Assembly: GCA_021324685.1 (NCBI GenBank)
Contig: JAJPIQ010000008.1
Coordinates: forward strand, 47,343-111,342
DNA from: Bacteroidota bacterium
Lineage (GTDB): Bacteria; Bacteroidota; Ignavibacteria; Palsa-1295
Direction: 5' to 3'
Length of the DNA stretch: 64,000 bases
Made by a program: the position numbers and the translations under genes. The notes under the pieces were generated by a model. It made no database searches. It saw only the letters and a program-made list of their open reading frames with translations, and was not told the DNA's origin. This document shows positions 53,113 through 64,000 of this stretch, in pieces. The stretch's first letter is position 1. Each line of letters starts with the position of its first letter.

Positions 53113-53511
53113 ATGAAGCAACCGTTACTTGTATTTTTGTACGTTTTGATTTTCGTTGCAATCTGTTTCGGAGTTTACTTCCTTATTGCGTTTATCACGG
53201 GTAAATTTATTCGAAGGAAGGCTATTCGCATATTGGTCGCAGTTCCACTTAGTATTCTTATTTGTGTGCTCGGAATGTGGTTTTTGGGGACCGAGCCGGA
53301 AAATAGCGTGACTGCTCAAAAATATATTTCTGGAAGTCCTGCTCAAGTCGATAGCATTGTGGGGAAAACTCGAAGTGAGACACGTAGCTTGTTAGGAGAC
53401 CCTACAGATTCTGTAGAGAATGAGTATTATTATGGTATAGCTCGTCACGAAGGAATTTCCGTCGAGTTTGAAAACGGAAAGGTTTACAAAGTTTATCATA
53501 CTGGAAGGTAA
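53113..53511 (+). CDS. Small hypothetical membrane protein inserted between murD and ftsW (low-GC)
   Basis: 132 aa. Two TM helices (LLVFLYVLIFVAICFGVYFLIAFI; ILVAVPLSILICVLGMWFLG). Start is 1 nt after the murD stop. AT-rich relative to the dcw genes. Confidence 0.5.
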   Translation: MKQPLLVFLYVLIFVAICFGVYFLIAFITGKFIRRKAIRILVAVPLSILICVLGMWFLGTEPENSVTAQKYISGSPAQVDSIVGKTRSETRSLLGDPTDSVENEYYYGIARHEGISVEFENGKVYKVYHTGR

Positions 53512-53567
53512 ACACAACTGTTAAAAAATATCGCCCTTTTAGGGCATTGGAATTTTAATGCACTGCT

Positions 53568-53725
53568 AACCCAGGGCTTCGTCCGCATTCGCGGACTGCG
53601 CCCTGGGCTGCGAGTACACCGTGCCTACGGCACTAAGGAATTGCGGCAATGGGAATTTATCAAAAATTAGCCACGAAGTGGCGAAGTACTCGCAGCCCAG
53701 GGTGAAGCGAAGCGCAACCCTGGGT
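53568..53725. repeat. Cluster of nested hairpins / inverted repeats in the dcw insertion (X1 53568-53617 and inverted X2 53686-53725 share ends acccaggg...ccctgggctgcgagtac; inner hairpin gtccgcATTCgcggac)
   Basis: The inner hairpin at 53581-53596 shares the CCGC-GAAT/ATTC-GCGG core with the GIY-YIG-associated hairpins. Additional palindromes gtgcctacggcac (53621-53633) and ccacgaagtgg (53671-53681). Confidence 0.6.
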
Positions 53726-53776
53726 AAAATGACGAATAGATTTTTTATGGCCCTGTAAGGGCGATGTTAAACCGAA

Positions 53777-54370
53777 ATGAAACCAAAACGAACCGCCGAC
53801 CTGAGCCTGTTTTTGACCGTGACCGGTCTTTTGCTCGGTTCGGTTAGTTCTCTCGCTGTTGCACAAAAGAATCGGGCAATAGTATCTCACGATAGTACAG
53901 ATCACGAATTTTTGCCGATCACTCAGAATCCCGACTTCATCTTGCCGATGGACGACCCGGAAGATGATTCAAATTATGATTATGGGACACAGGCTGCTTT
54001 GAATGGACTGGCAGGTGAATATTCTCGTAAGGTTGATTCGATGCTGAACACCGTCTATAAAGCAATATTGAGTAAGTATAGCGTGGATACTGAATTTATT
54101 CGATACTTTAAGAGAGCCGAAGCCGCCTGGATAATATATAGAGATGCCGAAATGTTGGCGATTATTCCACCTATTGAACCACCGGATGTCCATGGCTCCA
54201 TGGAAAGCATGTGCTACAGTGAATACCGAGTCTCGCTTACTCGAGAACGAATAAGCGAATTGCTGATGTGGCTAAACGTCGATCCGATGAACCAGACGGG
54301 ATGCGATACTTTTTATCCTGATGATTTATTACAATCAATGCGAGGCCAAAAAAATCAAAGAAAAGAATGA
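53777..54370 (+). CDS. Secreted DUF1311/LprI-like (lysozyme-inhibitor-like) protein whose first 20 codons duplicate the 5' end of ftsW
   Basis: 197 aa. MKPKRTADLSLFLTVTGLLLGSVSSLAVAQ. nt 53776-53837 are ~97% identical to 54366-54427 (the ftsW start). LNTVYKAILSKYS...RAEAAWIIYRDAEML...HGSMESMCYSEYRVSLTRERISELL fits the DUF1311 pattern (Y...L...QRAWI.YRDA.C....GGS....C......R..EL). Its stop overlaps the ftsW ATG (ATGA). Confidence 0.6.
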   Translation: MKPKRTADLSLFLTVTGLLLGSVSSLAVAQKNRAIVSHDSTDHEFLPITQNPDFILPMDDPEDDSNYDYGTQAALNGLAGEYSRKVDSMLNTVYKAILSKYSVDTEFIRYFKRAEAAWIIYRDAEMLAIIPPIEPPDVHGSMESMCYSEYRVSLTRERISELLMWLNVDPMNQTGCDTFYPDDLLQSMRGQKNQRKE

Positions 54371-55539
54371 AACCCAAACGGACCGCCGACCTGAGCCTGT
54401 TTTTGACCGTGACCGGTCTTTTGCTCGCAAGCCTGGCGTTCGTGTACTCGGCAAGCGCCTCGTTCAGCGCGGTGAAGATGGGCGCGAGCGAGTCGATGCT
54501 CTTCAATCACGCAAAGAAAGTGTTCCTGTCGCTCGTCGCGATGATCGTCTTCACGAAGATCGACTACCATAAATTCGAAAAGCAGACGAAATGGATCATG
54601 ATCTCCTCGCTCTTTCTGCTGGTGGCCGTGCTCTTTATCGGGACGCGGGAACTCGGCGCGCGGCGCTGGCTGGCGCTTGGGCCGTTCAGCTTTCAACCGG
54701 CGGAGTTCGCAAAGTTCGCACTCGTGCTGCATGTGGCAGCGCTCTGCGCGGCAAAGCAGGAGATCATCGGTAACTTCAAGAAAGCATTCCTTCCCATTGT
54801 CTTTTGGGCGATCGCCGCCGCGGCGCTGATCGCGAAGCAGCCGAACATGTCCACGGCAAGCGTGCTCATGGTGATCGCATTTGCGATCATGTATATTGCG
54901 CAGGTGCCGCTGAAGTATATGCTGACGAGTGGCGCCCTGGCCCTGTTTGGAGGCGGGCTCTTCGCGCTGACGGCAAGTTACCGCGTTCAGCGCATGCTGG
55001 CGTTCGTTGGGCATCACACCCAGCATACATCGCAGGTCGCATATCAGACGGACCAGGCGCTCATTGCCTTCGGCAATGGCGGACTGTTCGGGGTCGGCAT
55101 CGGGCAGTCGCGGCAAAGCCTGTTTTTCCTTCCTGAGTCCTACGGGGACTTCATTTATTCGGTGATCGGTGAAGAATATGGATTCATCGGCGCGATCCTG
55201 CTCCTGGTCGTCTTCGGATTCATCGTCATTCGCGGCATTCAAATTGCAAAACATGCTCCCGATGCATTCGGACGCTACACGGCCTTCGGAATTACGATGA
55301 CCCTTGCCCTGTACGTTACGATCAATGCGTTCGTGAATGTTGGGCTCCTGCCGGTCACGGGACTGCCGATGCCATTCGTAAGCTATGGGGGCACGAGCAT
55401 GATCTTCAGCGCCGCGGCCATGGGAATTTTACTCAATATCTCGAAATACGCCGTGACGCTCCCGAGGGCACCTCGGGTGACGATCGCGGAGCGCCTCTTG
55501 CGCATCGTAAAACCACCAGAACAGGAAGCCATTGCCTAA
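54367..55539 (+). CDS. ftsW: Peptidoglycan glycosyltransferase FtsW (SEDS family)
   Basis: 390 aa, ~10 TM helices. SEDS motifs (…PAEFAKFALVLHVAAL…, …GLLPVTGLPMPFVSYGGTSM…). Canonical position. Confidence 0.85.
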   Translation: MKPKRTADLSLFLTVTGLLLASLAFVYSASASFSAVKMGASESMLFNHAKKVFLSLVAMIVFTKIDYHKFEKQTKWIMISSLFLLVAVLFIGTRELGARRWLALGPFSFQPAEFAKFALVLHVAALCAAKQEIIGNFKKAFLPIVFWAIAAAALIAKQPNMSTASVLMVIAFAIMYIAQVPLKYMLTSGALALFGGGLFALTASYRVQRMLAFVGHHTQHTSQVAYQTDQALIAFGNGGLFGVGIGQSRQSLFFLPESYGDFIYSVIGEEYGFIGAILLLVVFGFIVIRGIQIAKHAPDAFGRYTAFGITMTLALYVTINAFVNVGLLPVTGLPMPFVSYGGTSMIFSAAAMGILLNISKYAVTLPRAPRVTIAERLLRIVKPPEQEAIA

Positions 55540-56644: not shown

Positions 56645-57130
56645 ATGGACACCGAAAAACATGTTTATCGCGTGCGGCTCGACTTTCTCTATCAGTCGAT
56701 CGCGGTCTATGCGGCAACGCTTGTCGTCTACCTGATCATTCGTTCCATCGCCGAATGGCATATCTTTCCGACCTTATGGCAGGACCCCTTACTCTTGCTC
56801 TTATCTGCGATCACGCTGATCAGTGCACTGGCCCTCGCCTATAACATTTTTATGCGCCGCCAAATTGAAATTACGCGCGATGCCCTTCGTTTCACGAGCC
56901 GGGCGCGGACCCGATCGATCGAGCGAACCAATGTCGCGTTCGTCCAGATCGGTCCCCGAGGGCGCGAAGTGCGCCGCGTGCGGGCCGTTCGCATTCGCTT
57001 GCGAAATCAGAAACGTCCCATTCGCATTCGGCTTTCGAATTTTGAACGCAGCCGAAAATTATTAACCGACCTGGAGGAATGGGCCGGGCCACTAGCTTCC
57101 GCGCGAAGCACACGTCCCGCGCAGGCCTGA
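56645..57130 (+). CDS. Hypothetical small membrane protein located between murG and murC
   Basis: 161 aa. Two TM helices (IAVYAATLVVYLII; LLLLLSAITLISALALAY) followed by an Arg-rich tail. Not a canonical dcw gene. Confidence 0.45.
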   Translation: MDTEKHVYRVRLDFLYQSIAVYAATLVVYLIIRSIAEWHIFPTLWQDPLLLLLSAITLISALALAYNIFMRRQIEITRDALRFTSRARTRSIERTNVAFVQIGPRGREVRRVRAVRIRLRNQKRPIRIRLSNFERSRKLLTDLEEWAGPLASARSTRPAQA

Positions 57131-57134
57131 CAAA

Positions 57135-58544
57135 GTGCAACGCGTTCATTTTATCGGTATTGGCGGTGCGGGCATGAGCGGCCTCGCAGAAATACTTCTG
57201 TTGCGCGGCGTTTCCGTTTCCGGAAGCGACTTAGCACCGAATAAAAAAACTGCCGAGCTGGAGGCCCTGGGCGCATCGATCTTTATCGGGCATGACGCAA
57301 AACATGTCGAAGGTTCGGATGTGGTCGTCTATTCTTCCGCAGCGGCGTCCGACAATATCGAACGGAATGCCGCTGCAACGCTGGGGATCCGCCAGGTGCG
57401 CCGCGCCGAATTTATGGCGGAGCTTCTGAAGGAGCATACCGTCATTGCCGTTGCCGGCACGCACGGAAAGACGACCGTAACCAGCATGATCGCTTCTATT
57501 TTTATCGAAGCGCGGCTCGATCCCCTGGTACTGGTCGGGGCAAGCGTTCCGGAACTCGGAAATAAAAATTCTCGAGCGGGCTCCGGAAAAATCGCCATCG
57601 TTGAAGCCGATGAATTCGACCGCAGCTTCCTCGCGCTTTCTCCATTTCTTGCGGTGATGACGACACTCGAAGCCGAACACCTCGATATTTATGGAACGAT
57701 CGAATCCCTGAAGGACGCGTTCGTGGAGTTCGCGAATCAGGGACCCTCCAACGGATATGCCATCGTTTGTCTCGATGAGACCGTCCTGCGCGAAATTACG
57801 CCACGGCTGAAAAAGCGTATCGTCTCGTATGGGATTCATTCGCCCGAAGCAAAATATCGCGCGCGCGATATTTCCATCGCCCGATCGAAAACTCGCGCGA
57901 CCGTGCTCCGGGGAAGTGAAGTCATTGGCGAACTGGAACTCAGGGTTCCCGGTGAGCACAATATCAAAAATGCGCTTGCGGCGATCGCCGTTGCCGATGC
58001 CTTTGCCATCCCGCTGGAGCGGTCGATCCATGCGCTGAAGCGCTTTGGCGGCGCTGAACGGCGCTTTCAAACGATCGGGGAAGCCGGCCGCACCGTCGTG
58101 ATCGACGATTATGCGCACCATCCGACCGAAGTCCGGGCGACGCTCGCCACGGCCCGAGCCTTATATCCGGAGCAACGGATCGTCGCCTGTTTTCAGCCGC
58201 ACACATTCACGCGCACGCGGGACTTTGCCGAAATGTTCGGCGAAGTCCTGGCTTCGATGGCGAACGTTACCGTCCTTCTCGACATCTATCCGGCCCGCGA
58301 GGAGCCGATCGAGGGCGTCACATCGCGCCTGATCGCGGAGGCGGCGCGATCGGCCGGGATCAAAGAGCTCCATGAAACAAGAATGCCTTCCGACCTTCCG
58401 AATGTTTTACGCGGTATCGTCCAGGAGGGCGATGTGATCCTGACGATGGGCGCCGGACCCATTACCGACGCGGCCCCAAAAATTGTTGAAATGCTGAACG
58501 AACGCATGCCGGTCTCGGCACAAGAAATCGATTCTGCGGTATGA
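57135..58544 (+). CDS. murC: UDP-N-acetylmuramate--L-alanine ligase
   Basis: 469 aa. HFIGIGGAGMSGLAEILL and VAGTHGKTTVTSMIAS motifs. Confidence 0.9.
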   Translation: MQRVHFIGIGGAGMSGLAEILLLRGVSVSGSDLAPNKKTAELEALGASIFIGHDAKHVEGSDVVVYSSAAASDNIERNAAATLGIRQVRRAEFMAELLKEHTVIAVAGTHGKTTVTSMIASIFIEARLDPLVLVGASVPELGNKNSRAGSGKIAIVEADEFDRSFLALSPFLAVMTTLEAEHLDIYGTIESLKDAFVEFANQGPSNGYAIVCLDETVLREITPRLKKRIVSYGIHSPEAKYRARDISIARSKTRATVLRGSEVIGELELRVPGEHNIKNALAAIAVADAFAIPLERSIHALKRFGGAERRFQTIGEAGRTVVIDDYAHHPTEVRATLATARALYPEQRIVACFQPHTFTRTRDFAEMFGEVLASMANVTVLLDIYPAREEPIEGVTSRLIAEAARSAGIKELHETRMPSDLPNVLRGIVQEGDVILTMGAGPITDAAPKIVEMLNERMPVSAQEIDSAV

Positions 58545-59833
58545 TGCTCCCAGACAACGAAAATATAGTTCCGATTGCCGGCGAAGCTCCGGCAGCGACG
58601 GTCCCGGAACGAAGCGACGACGACACCGCTGCGGACTCCTCGCCCGCTGCCGTGGAGGAAAAGCATTCCCAAACGCCGCCGCGCGACCGGACCGATCGCA
58701 CAAACCGGAACGACCGGAAAAACCGAAATGAGCGCCCGCAGCGCCGGAACGCGCGCGCGACCGCGGGACCGAAGCCGGCGATTTTTACGCGCGTCGTCGC
58801 GATCAGTTGGTCGGCCGCTCGGGAGCCGATCGACGACCTCTTCTGGGCCGAAGCCATGGTCGAAGGCGATTGGACCGTGGTCCGCTACCTCGACCGCATT
58901 CGTTCCCGAAAGGAACTGCTCGAGCGGATTCTCGACCTCAAGCACGGACTGGTCGCACTCGATTTTAACTTCGGGTTCCCAACCGATTTTTACGATTTTT
59001 TGGCCGCCTCGGAAGGAGTGTCGGACTGGCAAAGCCTCCTCAGGGCCGCCCGGAACGACCTCAAAAAGAATATGGAGGACGGCCTTCGGCTCTGGGTCGA
59101 GCGGCTGGGCCGTTATCGCGAGTCGAGGCTCGACTCCTCGATGCCTCGCGGCAAACTTCAGAGATCGAAACGCTACGACGACTGGGGCTGGAATTTTCAA
59201 CAAAAGTCCTTAGCGCCGCACGAACAGCGTTCGATCGCACAGCGATTTCGCCGGACCGATTATCCGCTGCGGAACGCCGCCGGCGAAAACCTGATGAGCA
59301 CCATGCAGATCGGTTATAACCGGCTGACGCGGCGCTACGAATTCAACGGTAATATTCGCGGCCGCGGAACCGTGCTCGGCCTTGCGCTGCTCGACCAGTT
59401 GTTGGAGGCCGACCGAAAGGACCTCGCCATTTGGCCGATGATGAAGCCGCGGCCGCTGACCATCGTCGAATCGCTCCCGTGGTTATTTACCGGCGGGAAG
59501 GATCTGGAGCCGGCGGCCTTTGCCAACCTGATCGCAAGCTATGAGGATGCCGGCTGGGACATTCCGTCCGCGATCGAAGGCTGGGCCGAGCGAAGTACCG
59601 ATGCGCAACGCGCGCTGCGGACGCTCTTCGGAATTTTAAAAACAGAACGCCGGCTCGAACGCCGTTCGGAGCGTCACCGGCCGATCCGCGAATATAGCGA
59701 AGAACTCTATCGCGATCCCCAGGTCCAGCGCGAAGGCTGGATTTATGGCCTCGGCTATCGCCCTCGCGAAGAAGCCCGGGAGACGGTCGAAGCCACGCCC
59801 GAAGCGGAGGAAGTTCCTTCGCTGGAAGCATAA
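58541..59833 (+). CDS. Hypothetical protein occupying the murB/ddl position between murC and ftsQ; basic low-complexity N-terminus
   Basis: 430 aa. Start overlaps the murC stop (ATGA). N-terminal RDRTDRTNRNDRKNRNERPQRRNARA. No recognisable catalytic motif. A DUF429/RNase-H-like fold is only a guess. Confidence 0.5.
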   Translation: MMLPDNENIVPIAGEAPAATVPERSDDDTAADSSPAAVEEKHSQTPPRDRTDRTNRNDRKNRNERPQRRNARATAGPKPAIFTRVVAISWSAAREPIDDLFWAEAMVEGDWTVVRYLDRIRSRKELLERILDLKHGLVALDFNFGFPTDFYDFLAASEGVSDWQSLLRAARNDLKKNMEDGLRLWVERLGRYRESRLDSSMPRGKLQRSKRYDDWGWNFQQKSLAPHEQRSIAQRFRRTDYPLRNAAGENLMSTMQIGYNRLTRRYEFNGNIRGRGTVLGLALLDQLLEADRKDLAIWPMMKPRPLTIVESLPWLFTGGKDLEPAAFANLIASYEDAGWDIPSAIEGWAERSTDAQRALRTLFGILKTERRLERRSERHRPIREYSEELYRDPQVQREGWIYGLGYRPREEARETVEATPEAEEVPSLEA

Positions 59834-59928: not shown

Positions 59929-61071
59929 GTGAAGTTCATCATTCAGCCGCAGGAGCGGAAAGAATTCGTCAATCTGCCGGAGACCGGAACGGATGCGCTC
60001 GTGCGCGCGCACCGGTCGGACCTGCTCGGCCAGGCCGACCGCCTGACGCCCGCTCCGGATTCGGATCCCGAACGTTCCGAGCCACCGCGCGATGCCTTTG
60101 CGGACTTTCTTTCGGGTCCGGTCGAGGAGTCGGAGTCCGAGCCGCACGCCGCGGCTTCGTGGAAGCATTCGAAGTGGGTCGGCATCCTGCCGGTCTGCGT
60201 CCTGGCCGTGCTCGGAATTATCTGGTACTTCGCCGCGCGCTCGGACAGCCAGCTCATGCTTTCCGAAATTCGGGTCGAAGGCGCAAATCTCCTGACCAGT
60301 CAGGAGATCATCTCGCTGGCGAAGATCGATGCAAAAGTTCCGTTTTACCAGATCGACCTGAAACCGGTCGAACTCCGGCTCCTGCAGCATTCCTTTATTC
60401 GGTCGGCCCACGTGCGGCGCGAATTGAACCCTCCGGCGCTCATTCTTTCGATCGAGGAGCGCCAGCCCGTCGCGATCCTCCGTTCCGATTCGACGAACGA
60501 AACGTTCCTGATCGATCGGGAAGGAATGCTGCTGCGGCCACGGCTCATCGCCGGCATCCGCGACCCGGCCCAGCTCCTGCAGGTCCCACTCCTCTCCGGG
60601 GTCTCCGAGCGGGACACCATGGCCTATCAGGGGATGGCAAAATTAGTCCAGTTCATCGTCTCGCTGAACTCGGGTTCCATGCAAAATGCGATCGGCGAAC
60701 TCCGGCGAACGCCGACGGGCGACTACGTGATCTATACGACCGAAACGCAGACCCCGATCTTCTTAGGTTCCCCGTTCGATGCGGAATACAAAGGGGCCCT
60801 CGAAGAACAGACCGATACCGTTCCCGCGCAAAAGGAACCGTTATTCGACCGCCAGCTCCGCCTATTGGCCAGCGTGTGGAAGACCAATATCCAGCCCCAG
60901 TTGCGGAGCGGGACTTCCCTCTACGTCGATGCGCGCTTTAATGGCCAGGTCATTCTGAAACACAAAAATTTTAATCGGACCGCTGCGCCGGCACAGGGCA
61001 CGGCGGTCGCATCCACCAATCTCATTGCAAACAGGTATGCAACGAACGCGAACGAGCGATCCAGTCACTGA
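59929..61071 (+). CDS. ftsQ: Cell division protein FtsQ/DivIB (POTRA domain)
   Basis: 380 aa. TM VGILPVCVLAVLGIIWYF, then POTRA-like LSEIRVEGANLLTSQEIISLA... Canonical position before ftsA. Confidence 0.7.
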   Translation: MKFIIQPQERKEFVNLPETGTDALVRAHRSDLLGQADRLTPAPDSDPERSEPPRDAFADFLSGPVEESESEPHAAASWKHSKWVGILPVCVLAVLGIIWYFAARSDSQLMLSEIRVEGANLLTSQEIISLAKIDAKVPFYQIDLKPVELRLLQHSFIRSAHVRRELNPPALILSIEERQPVAILRSDSTNETFLIDREGMLLRPRLIAGIRDPAQLLQVPLLSGVSERDTMAYQGMAKLVQFIVSLNSGSMQNAIGELRRTPTGDYVIYTTETQTPIFLGSPFDAEYKGALEEQTDTVPAQKEPLFDRQLRLLASVWKTNIQPQLRSGTSLYVDARFNGQVILKHKNFNRTAAPAQGTAVASTNLIANRYATNANERSSH

Positions 61072-61084
61072 TTCCATCGAGCCC

Positions 61085-62422
61085 ATGGCCCGCTATACTC
61101 CGATAAACTCCGCACCCATGATCGGCGTCCCGAGCGCGCTCGATCCCGGCCGTATCATCGTCGGCCTGGACGTCGGAACGACGAAAGTCTGCGCCATCGT
61201 CGCCGCGCTTTCCCTTCGGGAACCGCAGACCATGACGGTCCTCGGCGTGGGCCACGCCGCGGCGGACGGACTTTCGCGCGGCGTCGTAACGAATATCGAA
61301 AAGACCGTCCGCTCGATCGAACGCGCGATCGCCGAGGCCGAAGCCCAGAGCGGAGTCAAGATCCGCGAGGTCGTCGTCGGAATCGCGGGGGACCACATCC
61401 AGTCCTTCCAGTCCCGCGGCGTGGTAACTATTTCGAACGCCGAGCGGACCATCACGCAGGACGATGTGGACCGCCTCATCGAGGACACGAAAAAAGTTCA
61501 CCTCCCAATGGACCGCAAGATCCTGCACGTGATCCCGCAGGAGTACATCGTCGATGGACAGGACGGGATCTACGAGCCGATCGGAATGTCGGGCGTGCGC
61601 CTCGAAGCCAGCGTCCATATTATCAACGGCCTGGTGACTGCCGTCCAGAATATCCATAACTGTGTCGAACGCGCGGGGCTCCGCGTCCGCGATATTGTGC
61701 TCGAGCCGCTCGCCTCCAGCTATGCCGTACTCGACGACGAAGAGAAAGAGGTCGGCGTCGCGCTCGTCGATATCGGCGGCGGAACGACGGACATTGCCGT
61801 CTTCGAGGAACGGACGATCCGGCACACGGCGGTGATCGGCATCGCCGGACAAAAAGTTACCGACGATATCCGGAAAGGGCTCGGGATCCTGGGCGACCAG
61901 GCCGAACGCCTGAAATGCGAATACGGCTGTGCCGTCGTCTCGCATATTTTACGCGATGAAGTGATCCAGTTGCCGGGCCTCGCCGGAAGGAAACCGCGGG
62001 AGATCGCGAAGTCCGTCCTGGCACGAGTCATCCAGCCGCGCATGGAAGAGATCCTGGAATTCGCGCTGGCAGAAATTAAGCGGTCCGGCTATGCGCGGCA
62101 CCTCTCGGCGGGCGTCGTGCTCACGGGCGGCGGATCGATGACGAACGGCACGCGCGAACTTGCCGAAGAAATCTTCCAGATGCCGGTCAAGATCGGGATG
62201 CCGATGGGCTTTGGCGCGGGGCTCGTGAAAGAGGTCGAGTCGCCCGTCTTTTCGACGGCCGTCGGACTCGTACTCTATGCGTTCAAGCACCATGCGCCGC
62301 CGGCCTATATCGAAGAGGCCGCGTCGCAGGAACCCTCGTTCGAAACAGAGGACGACCCGAACCTGAGCGGCCAGGCCGGGAACATTTTTTCTCGGATGAA
62401 AGAATGGTTCGAACAGCTTTGA
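61085..62422 (+). CDS. ftsA: Cell division protein FtsA
   Basis: Start MARYTP.../MIGVPS... within ORF 61025..62422. IIVGLDVGTTKVCAIV, actin-like ATPase motifs (DIGGGTTDIAVF), and a C-terminal amphipathic tail. Confidence 0.85.
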   Translation: MARYTPINSAPMIGVPSALDPGRIIVGLDVGTTKVCAIVAALSLREPQTMTVLGVGHAAADGLSRGVVTNIEKTVRSIERAIAEAEAQSGVKIREVVVGIAGDHIQSFQSRGVVTISNAERTITQDDVDRLIEDTKKVHLPMDRKILHVIPQEYIVDGQDGIYEPIGMSGVRLEASVHIINGLVTAVQNIHNCVERAGLRVRDIVLEPLASSYAVLDDEEKEVGVALVDIGGGTTDIAVFEERTIRHTAVIGIAGQKVTDDIRKGLGILGDQAERLKCEYGCAVVSHILRDEVIQLPGLAGRKPREIAKSVLARVIQPRMEEILEFALAEIKRSGYARHLSAGVVLTGGGSMTNGTRELAEEIFQMPVKIGMPMGFGAGLVKEVESPVFSTAVGLVLYAFKHHAPPAYIEEAASQEPSFETEDDPNLSGQAGNIFSRMKEWFEQL

Positions 62423-62536
62423 GGCAGTGCTGAGCACATATCACTTTTTTTAGAGCACGTAGCACTTTTTTTTGAGTACTCAGCACTTTAACGTAGCACT
62501 TCACGTAGGACTTTTTTACTGCACTCTTTTACGAAC
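62423..62536. promoter_or_regulatory. ftsA-ftsZ intergenic region with five imperfect tandem (A/T)GCAC-Tn units (phased T-tracts)
   Basis: tgagcacatatcacttttttt / agagcacgtagcactttttttt / gagtactcagcacttta / acgtagcacttcacgtaggactttttt / actgcactctttt. T-runs recur at roughly 21-bp spacing. Confidence 0.45.
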
Positions 62537-64000
62537 ATGATAGAACTCGATACGAAACAAGATTATCGTGCGAAGATCCGAATTATCGGCATTGGCGGAG
62601 GGGGATCGAATGCCGTGAATTCGATGATCAACAAGGGCCTCGAGGGCGTCGAATTTTGCGTCCTGAATACGGACGTGCAGGCGCTCGAAAAAAGCACCGC
62701 GTCCACCAAACTGCAGATCGGCAAGAACCTGACGCGCGGCCTGGGCGCCGGCGCCGATCCCGAAGTCGGCCGCAAAGCGGTCGAGGAAGACCGTGAGGAG
62801 ATCAGCCGCATGATCGCAGGCAGCGATATGGTCTTCGTCACGGCGGGCATGGGTGGCGGCACGGGCACCGGGGGCGCGGCCTCCGTCGCGGCCATCGCGA
62901 AGTCCGTCGGCGCGCTCGTCGTGGGAATCGTTACCAAACCGTTCCAGTTCGAAGGAAAGCGCCGCTCGAAGCAGGCTGAAGAGGGCATCGAGGACCTGCG
63001 CAGCAATGTCGATACGCTCATCGTCATCCCCAACCAGAAGCTGCTCGCGCTCGTCGAGAACTCGACCTCGTTCTTGGACGGCTTCTCGCTCGCGAACCAG
63101 GTGCTCTATAATGCCACGCGCGGCATTTCGGAGCTCATCACGCGGCATGGCTACATCAACGTCGATTTTGCCGACGTCCGGACCGTCATGCGGGAGATGG
63201 GCGATGCCATCATGGGTTCCGGCGTGGGCCGTGGCGAGCACCGCGCTTCGATCGCGGCCGAGCAGGCGATCTCCTCGCCGCTCCTGGAAGGCGTGAAGAT
63301 CCAGGGCGCCCAGGGCGTGCTCGTGAATATCACGGGCGGACGCTCGATGTCGCTCCTCGAGGTAAGCGAGGCGACCCAGATCGTACACGATGCCGCCGGC
63401 GACGAGGCCAACATTATTTTTGGCGCCGTGCTCGATGAGTCGATGGAGGACGAGATCATGGTCACCGTGATCGCGACCGGATTTAATTCCCGGCCCAAAT
63501 ACAACGGCGGGCTCAGCCTGCGCGGCACTGAACGCCCGCGCGACATGGCCGACGAAACCCGACCCAAGCCCCGCGTGGAACGGATCCTCCAGCCCACCGC
63601 CGGACTGTCCGAGCGGGAACCCGTGGGCCGCGAGTTTGCAGGGCGCGAGCCTGGCGAACGCGAACTTAGCGAACGCGACGTTATCGAACACGAACCGGTG
63701 GGGCGCGAAGGGGGACTTGCCGTCGAAGAAGAGGGCGGCGAAATTCGGCTCCCGAAAGTCGAGCGGATCTACAAACCGCGCGGCACGCTTACCGAAAAAG
63801 AGCGCCGGGAGACCTACGACCGCCGCGAGTTCCCGGCCCGAGAGTCCGAACCGCAGCATATCGGCCAGATCTCGCGACTGACGCCGAAGACCGATTCGCG
63901 CCATGTGCCGAGCGGGCCTCGCGACCTCAAGGACTACGACCAGCCGGCCTACATGCGCCGCGGTATCGTCCTGCCGCCGATCGACGAGACGAGCGAAGAA
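62537..64000 (+). CDS. ftsZ: Cell division GTPase FtsZ; C-terminus truncated by the window end
   Basis: Not in the ORF track because it is open at the window edge. ATG at 62537 translates to MIELDTKQDYRAKIRIIGIGGGGSNAVNSMINKGLEGVEFCVLNTDVQAL..., with the tubulin signature GGGTGTG (…FVTAGMGGGTGTGGA…). Confidence 0.9.
   Translation, partial: MIELDTKQDYRAKIRIIGIGGGGSNAVNSMINKGLEGVEFCVLNTDVQALEKSTASTKLQIGKNLTRGLGAGADPEVGRKAVEEDREEISRMIAGSDMVFVTAGMGGGTGTGGAASVAAIAKSVGALVVGIVTKPFQFEGKRRSKQAEEGIEDLRSNVDTLIVIPNQKLLALVENSTSFLDGFSLANQVLYNATRGISELITRHGYINVDFADVRTVMREMGDAIMGSGVGRGEHRASIAAEQAISSPLLEGVKIQGAQGVLVNITGGRSMSLLEVSEATQIVHDAAGDEANIIFGAVLDESMEDEIMVTVIATGFNSRPKYNGGLSLRGTERPRDMADETRPKPRVERILQPTAGLSEREPVGREFAGREPGERELSERDVIEHEPVGREGGLAVEEEGGEIRLPKVERIYKPRGTLTEKERRETYDRREFPARESEPQHIGQISRLTPKTDSRHVPSGPRDLKDYDQPAYMRRGIVLPPIDETSEE

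Follow-up and report, generated by a model that had tools for sequence, protein, structure and literature searches.

A probable DUF429-type protein with a half-dismantled active site is a fixed resident of the dcw cluster in Kapaibacterium-like Bacteroidota

Few gene arrangements in bacteria are as well conserved as the division and cell wall (dcw) cluster, and a gene that has become a permanent part of it in one lineage is therefore a promising candidate for a lineage-specific extension of the machinery of division or wall synthesis; in the Fibrobacterota–Chlorobiota–Bacteroidota (FCB) group, cell division is little known outside a few model Bacteroidota. In a 64,000-nucleotide (nt) stretch from a member of the Ignavibacteria (Bacteroidota bacterium, GenBank assembly GCA_021324685.1, contig JAJPIQ010000008.1, positions 47,343 to 111,342), hereafter the window, the cluster includes murD, ftsW and murG (identified with Pfam) upstream of murC, with ftsQ and ftsA further downstream. 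Between murC and ftsQ lies a gene for a protein of 430 amino acids (aa), here called X. A first-pass annotation had described it as an unknown protein, with no recognisable catalytic motif, in the slot where many bacteria have murB and ddl. X is presented here as a very probable divergent, DUF429-type protein with a RuvC-like RNase H fold and an incomplete active site, held in the dcw cluster throughout its lineage. The coordinates of all features are collected in Table 1.

The start codon of X (58541-58543) overlaps the stop codon of murC (58542-58544), the latter gene ending ...GCG GTA TGA, and this ATGA overlap makes translational coupling possible. The GC content of X (0.613) and its GC content at third codon positions (GC3, 0.715) match those of murC, ftsQ and ftsA (0.575-0.614 and 0.63-0.77, respectively), and the protein has no stretch resembling a transmembrane (TM) helix, its highest Kyte-Doolittle mean over 19 residues being 0.8. 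The first-pass annotation was thus right about the position and overlap of the gene, its native composition and the lack of TM helices, and the strongly basic N-terminal stretch that it pointed out (RDRTDRTNRNDRKNRNERPQRRNA) was located at residues 47-70. Because 46 homologues were found, 50 columns are invariant in an alignment of 42 of them (38-62% identity), and an independent assembly (L026) carries the identical locus with the same 430-aa call, X is a genuine and constrained gene, not a chance open reading frame (ORF). In one locus (L006, 8001-10744) it is split into calls of 281 and 178 aa by a frameshift, possibly an assembly error.

Alone, X gave no useful match in Pfam, NCBIfam or the sequences of the PDB, and the Pfam DUF429 model (PF04250, gathering threshold 23 bits) did not match it even at E-values up to 10; a deep homologue (L023) gave a sub-threshold DUF429 match (14.8 bits, E 0.024). 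The X family proper is small and lineage-restricted, as only about 20 clusters of it were recovered when 1.84 billion representative proteins were searched exhaustively with an HMMER profile. Ranking below these were about 140 proteins ~260-300 aa long, whose matches cover two blocks (profile positions 81-170 and 270-400). When 84 of these ~270-aa relatives (alignment A3) were compared with the 42-sequence alignment of the X family using hhalign, the two were linked with 99.9% probability (E 2.1e-33, 259 columns). Ten of the 84 match PF04250 at E<0.01, one of them (P0069) above the gathering score at 27.3 bits.

The little-studied DUF429 family has been placed in clade D of the RNase H-like superfamily, together with RuvC, Ydc2, YqgF and the terminases, and its members were predicted to be active nucleases (PMC3985635). 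Longer relatives of X are fused to HD_4, MazG-like or RadC domains, in agreement with the fusions of DUF429 to RelA/SpoT and NUDIX domains reported in the same study (PMC3985635), and RNase HII activity has been reported for the DUF429 domain of Mycobacterium smegmatis MSMEG_5849 (PMC4429107). On this profile evidence X is very probably a divergent offshoot of the DUF429-type superfamily, lying below the detection limit of the Pfam model. A search of the PDB with the A3 profile returned no solved relative by sequence, and the genomic context of P0061, the closest catalytically intact relative, was uninformative. No paper on X was found in the literature on DUF429 or on the dcw cluster in Ignavibacteria.

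Comparison of the two alignments revealed which parts of the ancestral active site have survived. X and its relatives share a framework comprising W-S in strand 1, F-x-F-S-x-P after strand 4, W-P before strand 5, the glutamate of strand 5, a pair of alanines (A..A) in the last helix and E-G-W at the C-terminus; the common residues are W90, S91, F142, F144, S145, P147, W298, P299, P313, A349, A355, E398 and G399. The acidic residues have fared unevenly. The strand-5 glutamate (E310) is present in 84/84 relatives and 42/42 members of the X family, and the strand-4 aspartate (D141), likewise found in 84/84 relatives, is Asp in 35, Glu in 4 and Asn in 3. The strand-1 aspartate, again present in 84/84 relatives, is found in none of the 42 X sequences, where position 89 is occupied by Ser (18), Gly (11), Arg (4), Thr (3), Ala (2), Val (2) or Leu (2); seven different residues at one position argue for relaxed constraint rather than a functional substitution. 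In the C-terminal helix, the first aspartate position (354; D in 72 and H in 9 of the 84 relatives) retains Asp in 14/42 members, whereas the second (357; D in 76/84 relatives) is never Asp in the X family (R11, H9, Q6, N6, E5, K2, S2, I1). Two of the four canonical metal-binding carboxylates, the Asp of strand 1 and the last Asp of the D-x-x-D helix, are thus lost in every member, and the acidic metal-binding set that clade D carries in strand 1, strand 4 and the C-terminal helix is incomplete in X. The protein is therefore not motif-less, as had been supposed: it carries a recognisable, degenerate set. Residues invariant in the X family and specific to it include R94-E95-P96 directly after strand 1, E335-D336, E369, R371, R383 and Y385.

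Structure prediction is consistent with this ancestry. A first AlphaFold2 (AF2) model, built from the family alignment, was confident at residues 84-200 and 272-420, with disordered ends and low confidence across residues 205-271, although these are conserved. A core-only model (m6a7bc187cf16), built from a deeper alignment of 131 sequences, reached a predicted local distance difference test (pLDDT) score of 91.6 and a predicted template modelling score of 0.90, and was uncertain solely at residues 201-225. It displays the beta-beta-beta-alpha-beta-alpha-beta-alpha core of RNase H-like clade D. A Foldseek search of the PDB gave no match below E 0.02; the weak matches were all RNase H-like nucleases. 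Only about 120-150 of the 330 core residues superpose on known folds, the remainder being family-specific. The YqgF-like domains of Spt6/Tex, the RuvC domains of Cas9/Cas12, and YqgF itself came lower in the comparison. The profile search and structure prediction that the first-pass annotation had called for agree with it in so far as no curated family (Pfam, NCBIfam) names X and the protein is uncharacterised, while the profile-profile link to DUF429 and the RNase H-like fold go against its view of a protein without motifs.

Relative to DUF429-type proteins, X has gained a helical insertion of ~35 aa, a beta-hairpin of ~10 aa and disordered, charged tails. The helical insertion is invariant at K175, N177, D180, G181, R183, W185, R188, G190, Y192, R193 and E194, and the hairpin at N260, L262, T263, R265, Y266, E267 and F268. 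The N-terminal tail is divided by charge: residues 1-45 have an isoelectric point (pI) of 4.05 and residues 46-81 a pI of 12. This pattern is kept across the family in charge rather than in sequence, since almost every full-length homologue has a net charge of -4 to -17 in the first half of the region, where the sequence is unconserved save for a short MNxxEQ start, and the last 30 residues before the core carry +3 to +13. The C-terminal tail ranges from 0 to -17 and is acidic in all but one member. In three deep relatives (L023, L024 and L027), X is 358-373 aa long, 36-37% identical to X of the window, and begins with the folded core, the disordered N-terminus being absent. These tail-less proteins are degenerate at the same active-site positions, which places the loss at these positions before the acquisition of the tails.

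Every X homologue that carries a name is assigned to 'Candidatus Kapabacteria', and a scan of one genome per GTDB species found X in 15 species, all represented by metagenome-assembled genomes (MAGs) and labelled Kapaibacterium, Ignavibacteriota, Ignavibacteriae, Bacteroidetes or Bacteroidota; NCBI places Kapaibacterium in Bacteroidota. When MurG, orf161 (the product of a 161-codon gene discussed below), MurC, X, FtsQ and FtsA from the window were used as tblastn queries against 21 fetched loci, their order was the same in 21/21, and gene calls agreed. Deeper relatives, reached from distant FtsQ homologues (40-43% identity) and from a family member (P0051), have the order murG-orf164-murC-X-murB-ftsQ-ftsA-ftsZ in L023, L024 and L027. 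X adjoins murC downstream in every locus examined, comprising the window and about 22 other genomes, all Kapaibacterium-type MAGs, and among the loci found there was no copy outside a dcw cluster. The conserved embedding that had been proposed for a dcw accessory protein is thereby confirmed across the lineage, and X was fixed in the dcw operon, directly 3' of murC, in an ancestor of the Kapaibacterium-like Bacteroidota.

The two junctions of X behave differently. Its start overlaps the murC stop or lies within 5 nt of it in 8 of 11 gene-called loci (window, L001, L003, L006, L023, L024, L025, L027), with gaps of 61-86 nt in L004 and L005. On the other side, an Asp_protease_2 gene stands between X and ftsQ in L006, and several loci (among them L011, L012, L013 and L020) hold an extra 1.3-1.8 kb there. 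The X-ftsQ junction thus tolerates insertions, whereas the murC-X junction does not. In terms of sequence, X (41-59% identity) evolves faster than MurC (56-71%) and FtsA (79-98%), and about as fast as FtsQ.

Taken together, these findings suggest that X is no longer a canonical nuclease and would instead serve as a nucleic-acid- or partner-binding pseudonuclease tied to the division genes, a composite reading to which we assign a probability of roughly 0.4. From the residues lost, canonical two-metal cleavage would be gone. Single substitutions of the equivalent residues of RuvC abolish cleavage and leave junction binding intact, and on this model X would work by binding. A precedent exists in TEFM, a RuvC-fold pseudonuclease used as a DNA clamp (PMC9950373), and X may likewise be a binding module, its retained substrate groove and basic tail holding nucleic acid, with chromosomal DNA or a structure that is branched or hybrid as the likeliest ligand. 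The basic block beside the core, the Arg-rich insertion and the nucleic-acid ancestry of the fold together make a polyanionic ligand the most likely one. The acidic tails could be competitors of such binding or points of contact with another protein. X is always found together with murC and the fts genes and is probably translated along with them, which suggests a need for its activity when the division genes are expressed; made together with MurC, (in some loci) MurB, FtsQ, FtsA and FtsZ, X might couple the state of the chromosome, or of nucleic acid more generally, to septal wall synthesis. On synteny alone a division or cell-wall role is plausible, and the fold ancestry points to nucleic-acid rather than cell-wall chemistry.

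Several points weigh against this interpretation. The binding of DNA or RNA and the contact with division proteins are themselves inferred from sequence and gene position. The net charge of the core ranges from -4 to +9 across the family, so that it is not uniformly basic, and the tails are absent in the three deep members and hence are not essential to core function. Two acidic residues of the old site are kept, E310 being invariant, and are joined by new invariant ones (E95, E194, E228, E267, E335, D336 and E369), so that a rebuilt active site is possible. A place in the dcw cluster is also no proof of a division role, since dcw clusters also harbour rsmH and ylmH, whose products act on RNA or ribosomes.

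The rebuilt site leads to an alternative, which we consider possible though improbable, in which X is still an enzyme, a nuclease or a catalyst of phosphoryl or nucleotidyl transfer, using D141 and E310 with family-specific acidic residues such as E95. Such an enzyme could, for example, remove R-loops or branched DNA, as has been reported for the DUF429 domain of MSMEG_5849 with its RNase HII activity (PMC4429107), a report that speaks for this alternative. The persistence of E310 and, in most members, of D141 favours it, as do the invariant, X-specific R94-E95-P96 directly after strand 1, the many further invariant acidic and basic residues, and the fusion of relatives to nucleotide-pyrophosphate hydrolase domains (HD_4, MazG-like), which sets the superfamily in nucleotide and nucleic-acid chemistry. 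Yet the strand-1 aspartate, universal in the relatives, has given way to seven residues that include Gly, Arg and Leu, as expected under relaxed constraint, the last helix aspartate has been replaced by R/H/Q/N/E/K/S/I, and even D141 is Asn in three members; any one such change at the RuvC equivalents would abolish cleavage.

An equally doubtful alternative is that X fulfils a housekeeping role in RNA processing or repair, unrelated to division, and has ridden in the dcw operon since an ancestral insertion. The fold ancestry is wholly nucleic-acid-related, X evolves at the pace of FtsQ rather than that of MurC or FtsA, and the dcw cluster of this lineage accepts unrelated inserts, including LprI-domain, 23S_rRNA_IVP and Asp-protease genes. 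These other inserts are sporadic, however, whereas X holds the same position in every locus across a deep divergence (FtsQ down to 40% identity), stayed with murC even after murB left the cluster, and has not been found elsewhere.

Somewhat less probable still is that X acts purely as a protein scaffold with no nucleic-acid ligand, binding MurC (and MurB) or the cytoplasmic parts of FtsQ, FtsA or FtsZ, or orf161, and organising the late cytoplasmic steps of peptidoglycan-precursor synthesis at the division site. Its invariable position directly 3' of murC, often overlapping the stop codon, suggests matched production; it always co-occurs with orf161 on the other side of murC; and the conserved MNxxEQ peptide at the tip of an otherwise unconserved tail resembles a docking motif. 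Operon overlap is common between unrelated neighbours, though, interaction with these partners is conjectural, and the Arg-rich block beside the core and the invariant Arg residues of the insertion are better suited to a polyanionic ligand.

It is very unlikely that X stands in for MurB or Ddl by catalysing UDP-MurNAc or D-Ala-D-Ala synthesis as an enzyme of different descent. This proposal draws on position between murC and ftsQ and on the lack of murB in the 64-kb window, where tblastn with the MurB of a relative found none. Three relatives (L023, L024 and L027), however, carry X directly beside a normal murB encoding FAD_binding_4 and MurB_C, so that the 'murB/ddl slot' of the first-pass annotation stands in a positional sense only and fails as a statement of replacement. 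Judged as MurB, X lacks both of these Pfam domains and has a different fold; judged as Ddl, it lacks ATP-grasp and Dala_Dala_lig matches (Pfam, NCBIfam), and its RNase H-like fold is neither FAD-binding nor ATP-grasp. Since murB is absent from the window it is taken to lie elsewhere in the genome, having departed from the cluster in this sub-lineage. All loci with a long, tailed X lack murB in the cluster (L025, with the long form, is one), so that tail gain and murB departure coincide in this small sample.

Two further readings, a spurious ORF and a mobile or defence gene of recent acquisition, can be dismissed as extremely improbable, since the GC and GC3 of X match the neighbours, 50 residues are invariant, its position is fixed in all relatives, its fold is confidently predicted and X itself has no PADLOC match, the one pointer in the other direction being a weak match of the distant relative P0061 to the PADLOC candidate model PDC-S44 (E 2e-4). 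This match suggests that some members of the wider superfamily may be defence-associated, P0061 being a catalytically intact DUF429-type protein.

The pseudonuclease reading can be extended to a more specific and decidedly speculative proposal, in which X would serve Kapaibacterium-like Bacteroidota as a hitherto unrecognised division factor, sensing whether DNA at the future septum is unsegregated, branched or hybrid and gating septal wall synthesis through its charged tails and its neighbours MurC, orf161 and FtsQ. If true, X would represent a nucleoid-occlusion or chromosome-checkpoint device built from a resolvase fold and unrelated to Noc, SlmA or FtsK. More generally, if X binds DNA and acts at the septum, it would provide a new link between chromosome state and division, and a bacterial pseudonuclease of resolvase fold; if it is a nucleic-acid enzyme that has only hitch-hiked in the operon, it would count as an ordinary divergent member of its family. 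In either case X has become a concrete object, with a DUF429/RuvC-type fold whose active site is half dismantled, newly gained Arg-rich surface elements and tails patterned by charge. Its lineage is uncultured and known from MAGs alone, which limits the immediate impact.

Among known systems, the homologous one is DUF429 (PF04250; COG2410/COG4328/COG4923), which includes the N-terminal domain of MSMEG_5849, an RNase HII-(p)ppGpp synthetase. X differs from it in scoring below the Pfam threshold, in lacking two of the four conserved acidic residues, in its insertions and tails, and in being fixed in the dcw cluster; the relatives, by contrast, consist of a single domain or carry fusions to HD_4, MazG or RadC, and lie in unrelated contexts. 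The RuvC-clade Holliday-junction resolvases (Ydc2/Cce1, 1kcf; RuvC, 4ld0; poxvirus A22-type, 5e6f; MOC1, 6kvn) share 6-15% identity with X, and only about 45% of the X core superposes on them. The catalytic carboxylates of E. coli RuvC are D7, E66, D138 and D141; X has no RuvC match in Pfam or NCBIfam and lacks the equivalents of the first and fourth, in strand 1 and the last helix. TEFM (5ola), a eukaryotic mitochondrial transcription elongation factor, shows no sequence relationship to X (8-9% identity), contains a helix-hairpin-helix domain and acts with an RNA polymerase; the likeness is an analogy of mechanism only. X would work most like the TEFM-type pseudonucleases, and by descent it very probably belongs to the DUF429-type branch of the RNase H-like superfamily. 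In genomic setting it recalls rsmH/mraW, mraZ and, in Firmicutes, ylmH, which are non-division, nucleic-acid-directed proteins conserved in dcw clusters; their folds are unrelated to that of X and their phylogenetic distribution is far wider, X being confined to one small lineage. As X fails both the Pfam DUF429 threshold and the full set of catalytic residues, it is best described as a degenerate version of the known DUF429 type that occupies a new and fixed place in the genome; it belongs to no characterised family, yet it is not new as a category of protein.

Table 1. Features of X and its neighbourhood (window coordinates unless a locus is named)
Feature	Position	Strand	Basis and remarks
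orf161, membrane-protein gene of 161 aa between murG and murC	56645..57130	+	two predicted TM segments, basic C-terminal domain
murC, directly upstream of X in all loci	57135..58544	+	Pfam Mur_ligase, Mur_ligase_M, Mur_ligase_C; synteny
X, coding sequence with stop codon, 430 aa, ATG start	58541..59833	+	ORF listing; probable divergent DUF429-type, RuvC-like RNase H-fold protein
ATGA overlap of X start codon and murC stop codon	58541..58544	+	sequence; translational coupling possible
Acidic disordered N-terminal block, aa 1-45	58541..58675	+	pLDDT below 50; charge pattern
Basic disordered block rich in Arg/Lys/Asn, aa 46-81, directly before core	58676..58783	+	charge pattern
Folded core, aa 82-407	58784..59761	+	RNase H-like (RuvC-like) beta-beta-beta-alpha-beta-alpha...beta-alpha fold with helical additions
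Strand 1 and loop, aa 84-96, RVVAISWSAAREP	58790..58828	+	relatives VDWSG; catalytic Asp position (aa 89) is Ser in the window
Strand 4 motif, aa 136-147, GLVALDFNFGFP	58946..58981	+	retained D141; relatives L-D-F-A-F-S-x-P
Helical insertion, aa 165-200, consensus REDLKKNvDDGxRLWVERLGRYRES	59033..59140	+	relatives gapped there
Variable linker within core, aa 201-225	59141..59215	+	sole core stretch of low pLDDT; length-variable in alignment
Beta-hairpin, aa 257-268, IGYNRLTRRYEF	59309..59344	+	insertion relative to DUF429-type proteins; strands at core residues 177-180 and 185-188
Strand 5 motif LTIVESLPW, aa 306-314	59456..59482	+	invariant E310; relatives VEIYPR
C-terminal catalytic helix AERSTDAQRAL, aa 349-359	59585..59617	+	relatives RuvC-like D-A-F-D-A; second Asp is Arg in the window
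Acidic disordered C-terminal tail, aa 408-430	59762..59830	+	charge pattern; no sequence conservation
ftsQ, next gene downstream of X, 95-nt gap	59929..61071	+	POTRA_1; synteny
ftsA, after ftsQ	61025..62422	+	ORF listing, Pfam
X-murB regions of deep relatives	L023 3956-5939; L024 3946-5938; L027 5001-7041		gene calls

The neighbours of X include a second lineage-specific resident. The orf161 protein has no Pfam family, its sole match being a weak one to bPH_10 (E 0.024), and its gene holds the murG-murC position in every locus examined, including the deep relatives, always co-occurring with X, of which it could be a partner. The FtsQ of this lineage has a cytoplasmic extension of ~95 residues before its TM segment (59929-60230 in the window), acidic and proline-rich, where partners in the cytoplasm, X among them, might dock. 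Between murC, X and ftsQ there was no consensus terminator or sigma-70-type promoter, and nothing above shuffled expectation, in a scan that did not cover Bacteroidota promoters and is weak evidence here.

Elsewhere in the cluster, sporadic inserts were observed. In the window, orf132 (53113-53511; GC 0.40, GC3 0.36) and a 197-aa LprI-domain ORF (53777-54370; GC 0.44, GC3 0.43) are compositionally foreign against the GC3 of 0.63-0.77 of the dcw genes, and form an insert between murD and ftsW (53113-54370). The LprI ORF overlaps the start of ftsW, and begins with a duplicate of the first 20 ftsW codons (MKPKRTADLSLFLTVTGLLL); a 62-nt direct repeat, 97% identical, lies at 53776-53837 and 54366-54427. 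This looks like an insertion that copied or captured the 5' end of ftsW, whose first TM segment might then serve as a signal or anchor. An LprI gene occupies the same spot in L003 (309 aa) and L005 (173 aa), and not in L001, L004 or L006, while a 23S_rRNA_IVP gene (PF05635) lies inside the cluster directly upstream of mraY in L003 (1-187) and L006 (738-1100). Directly after ftsA, where relatives have ftsZ on the plus strand, the window lists a 462-aa ORF on the minus strand (62516-63904), which is very likely a shadow ORF, ftsZ itself running past the end of the window and so being unlisted.

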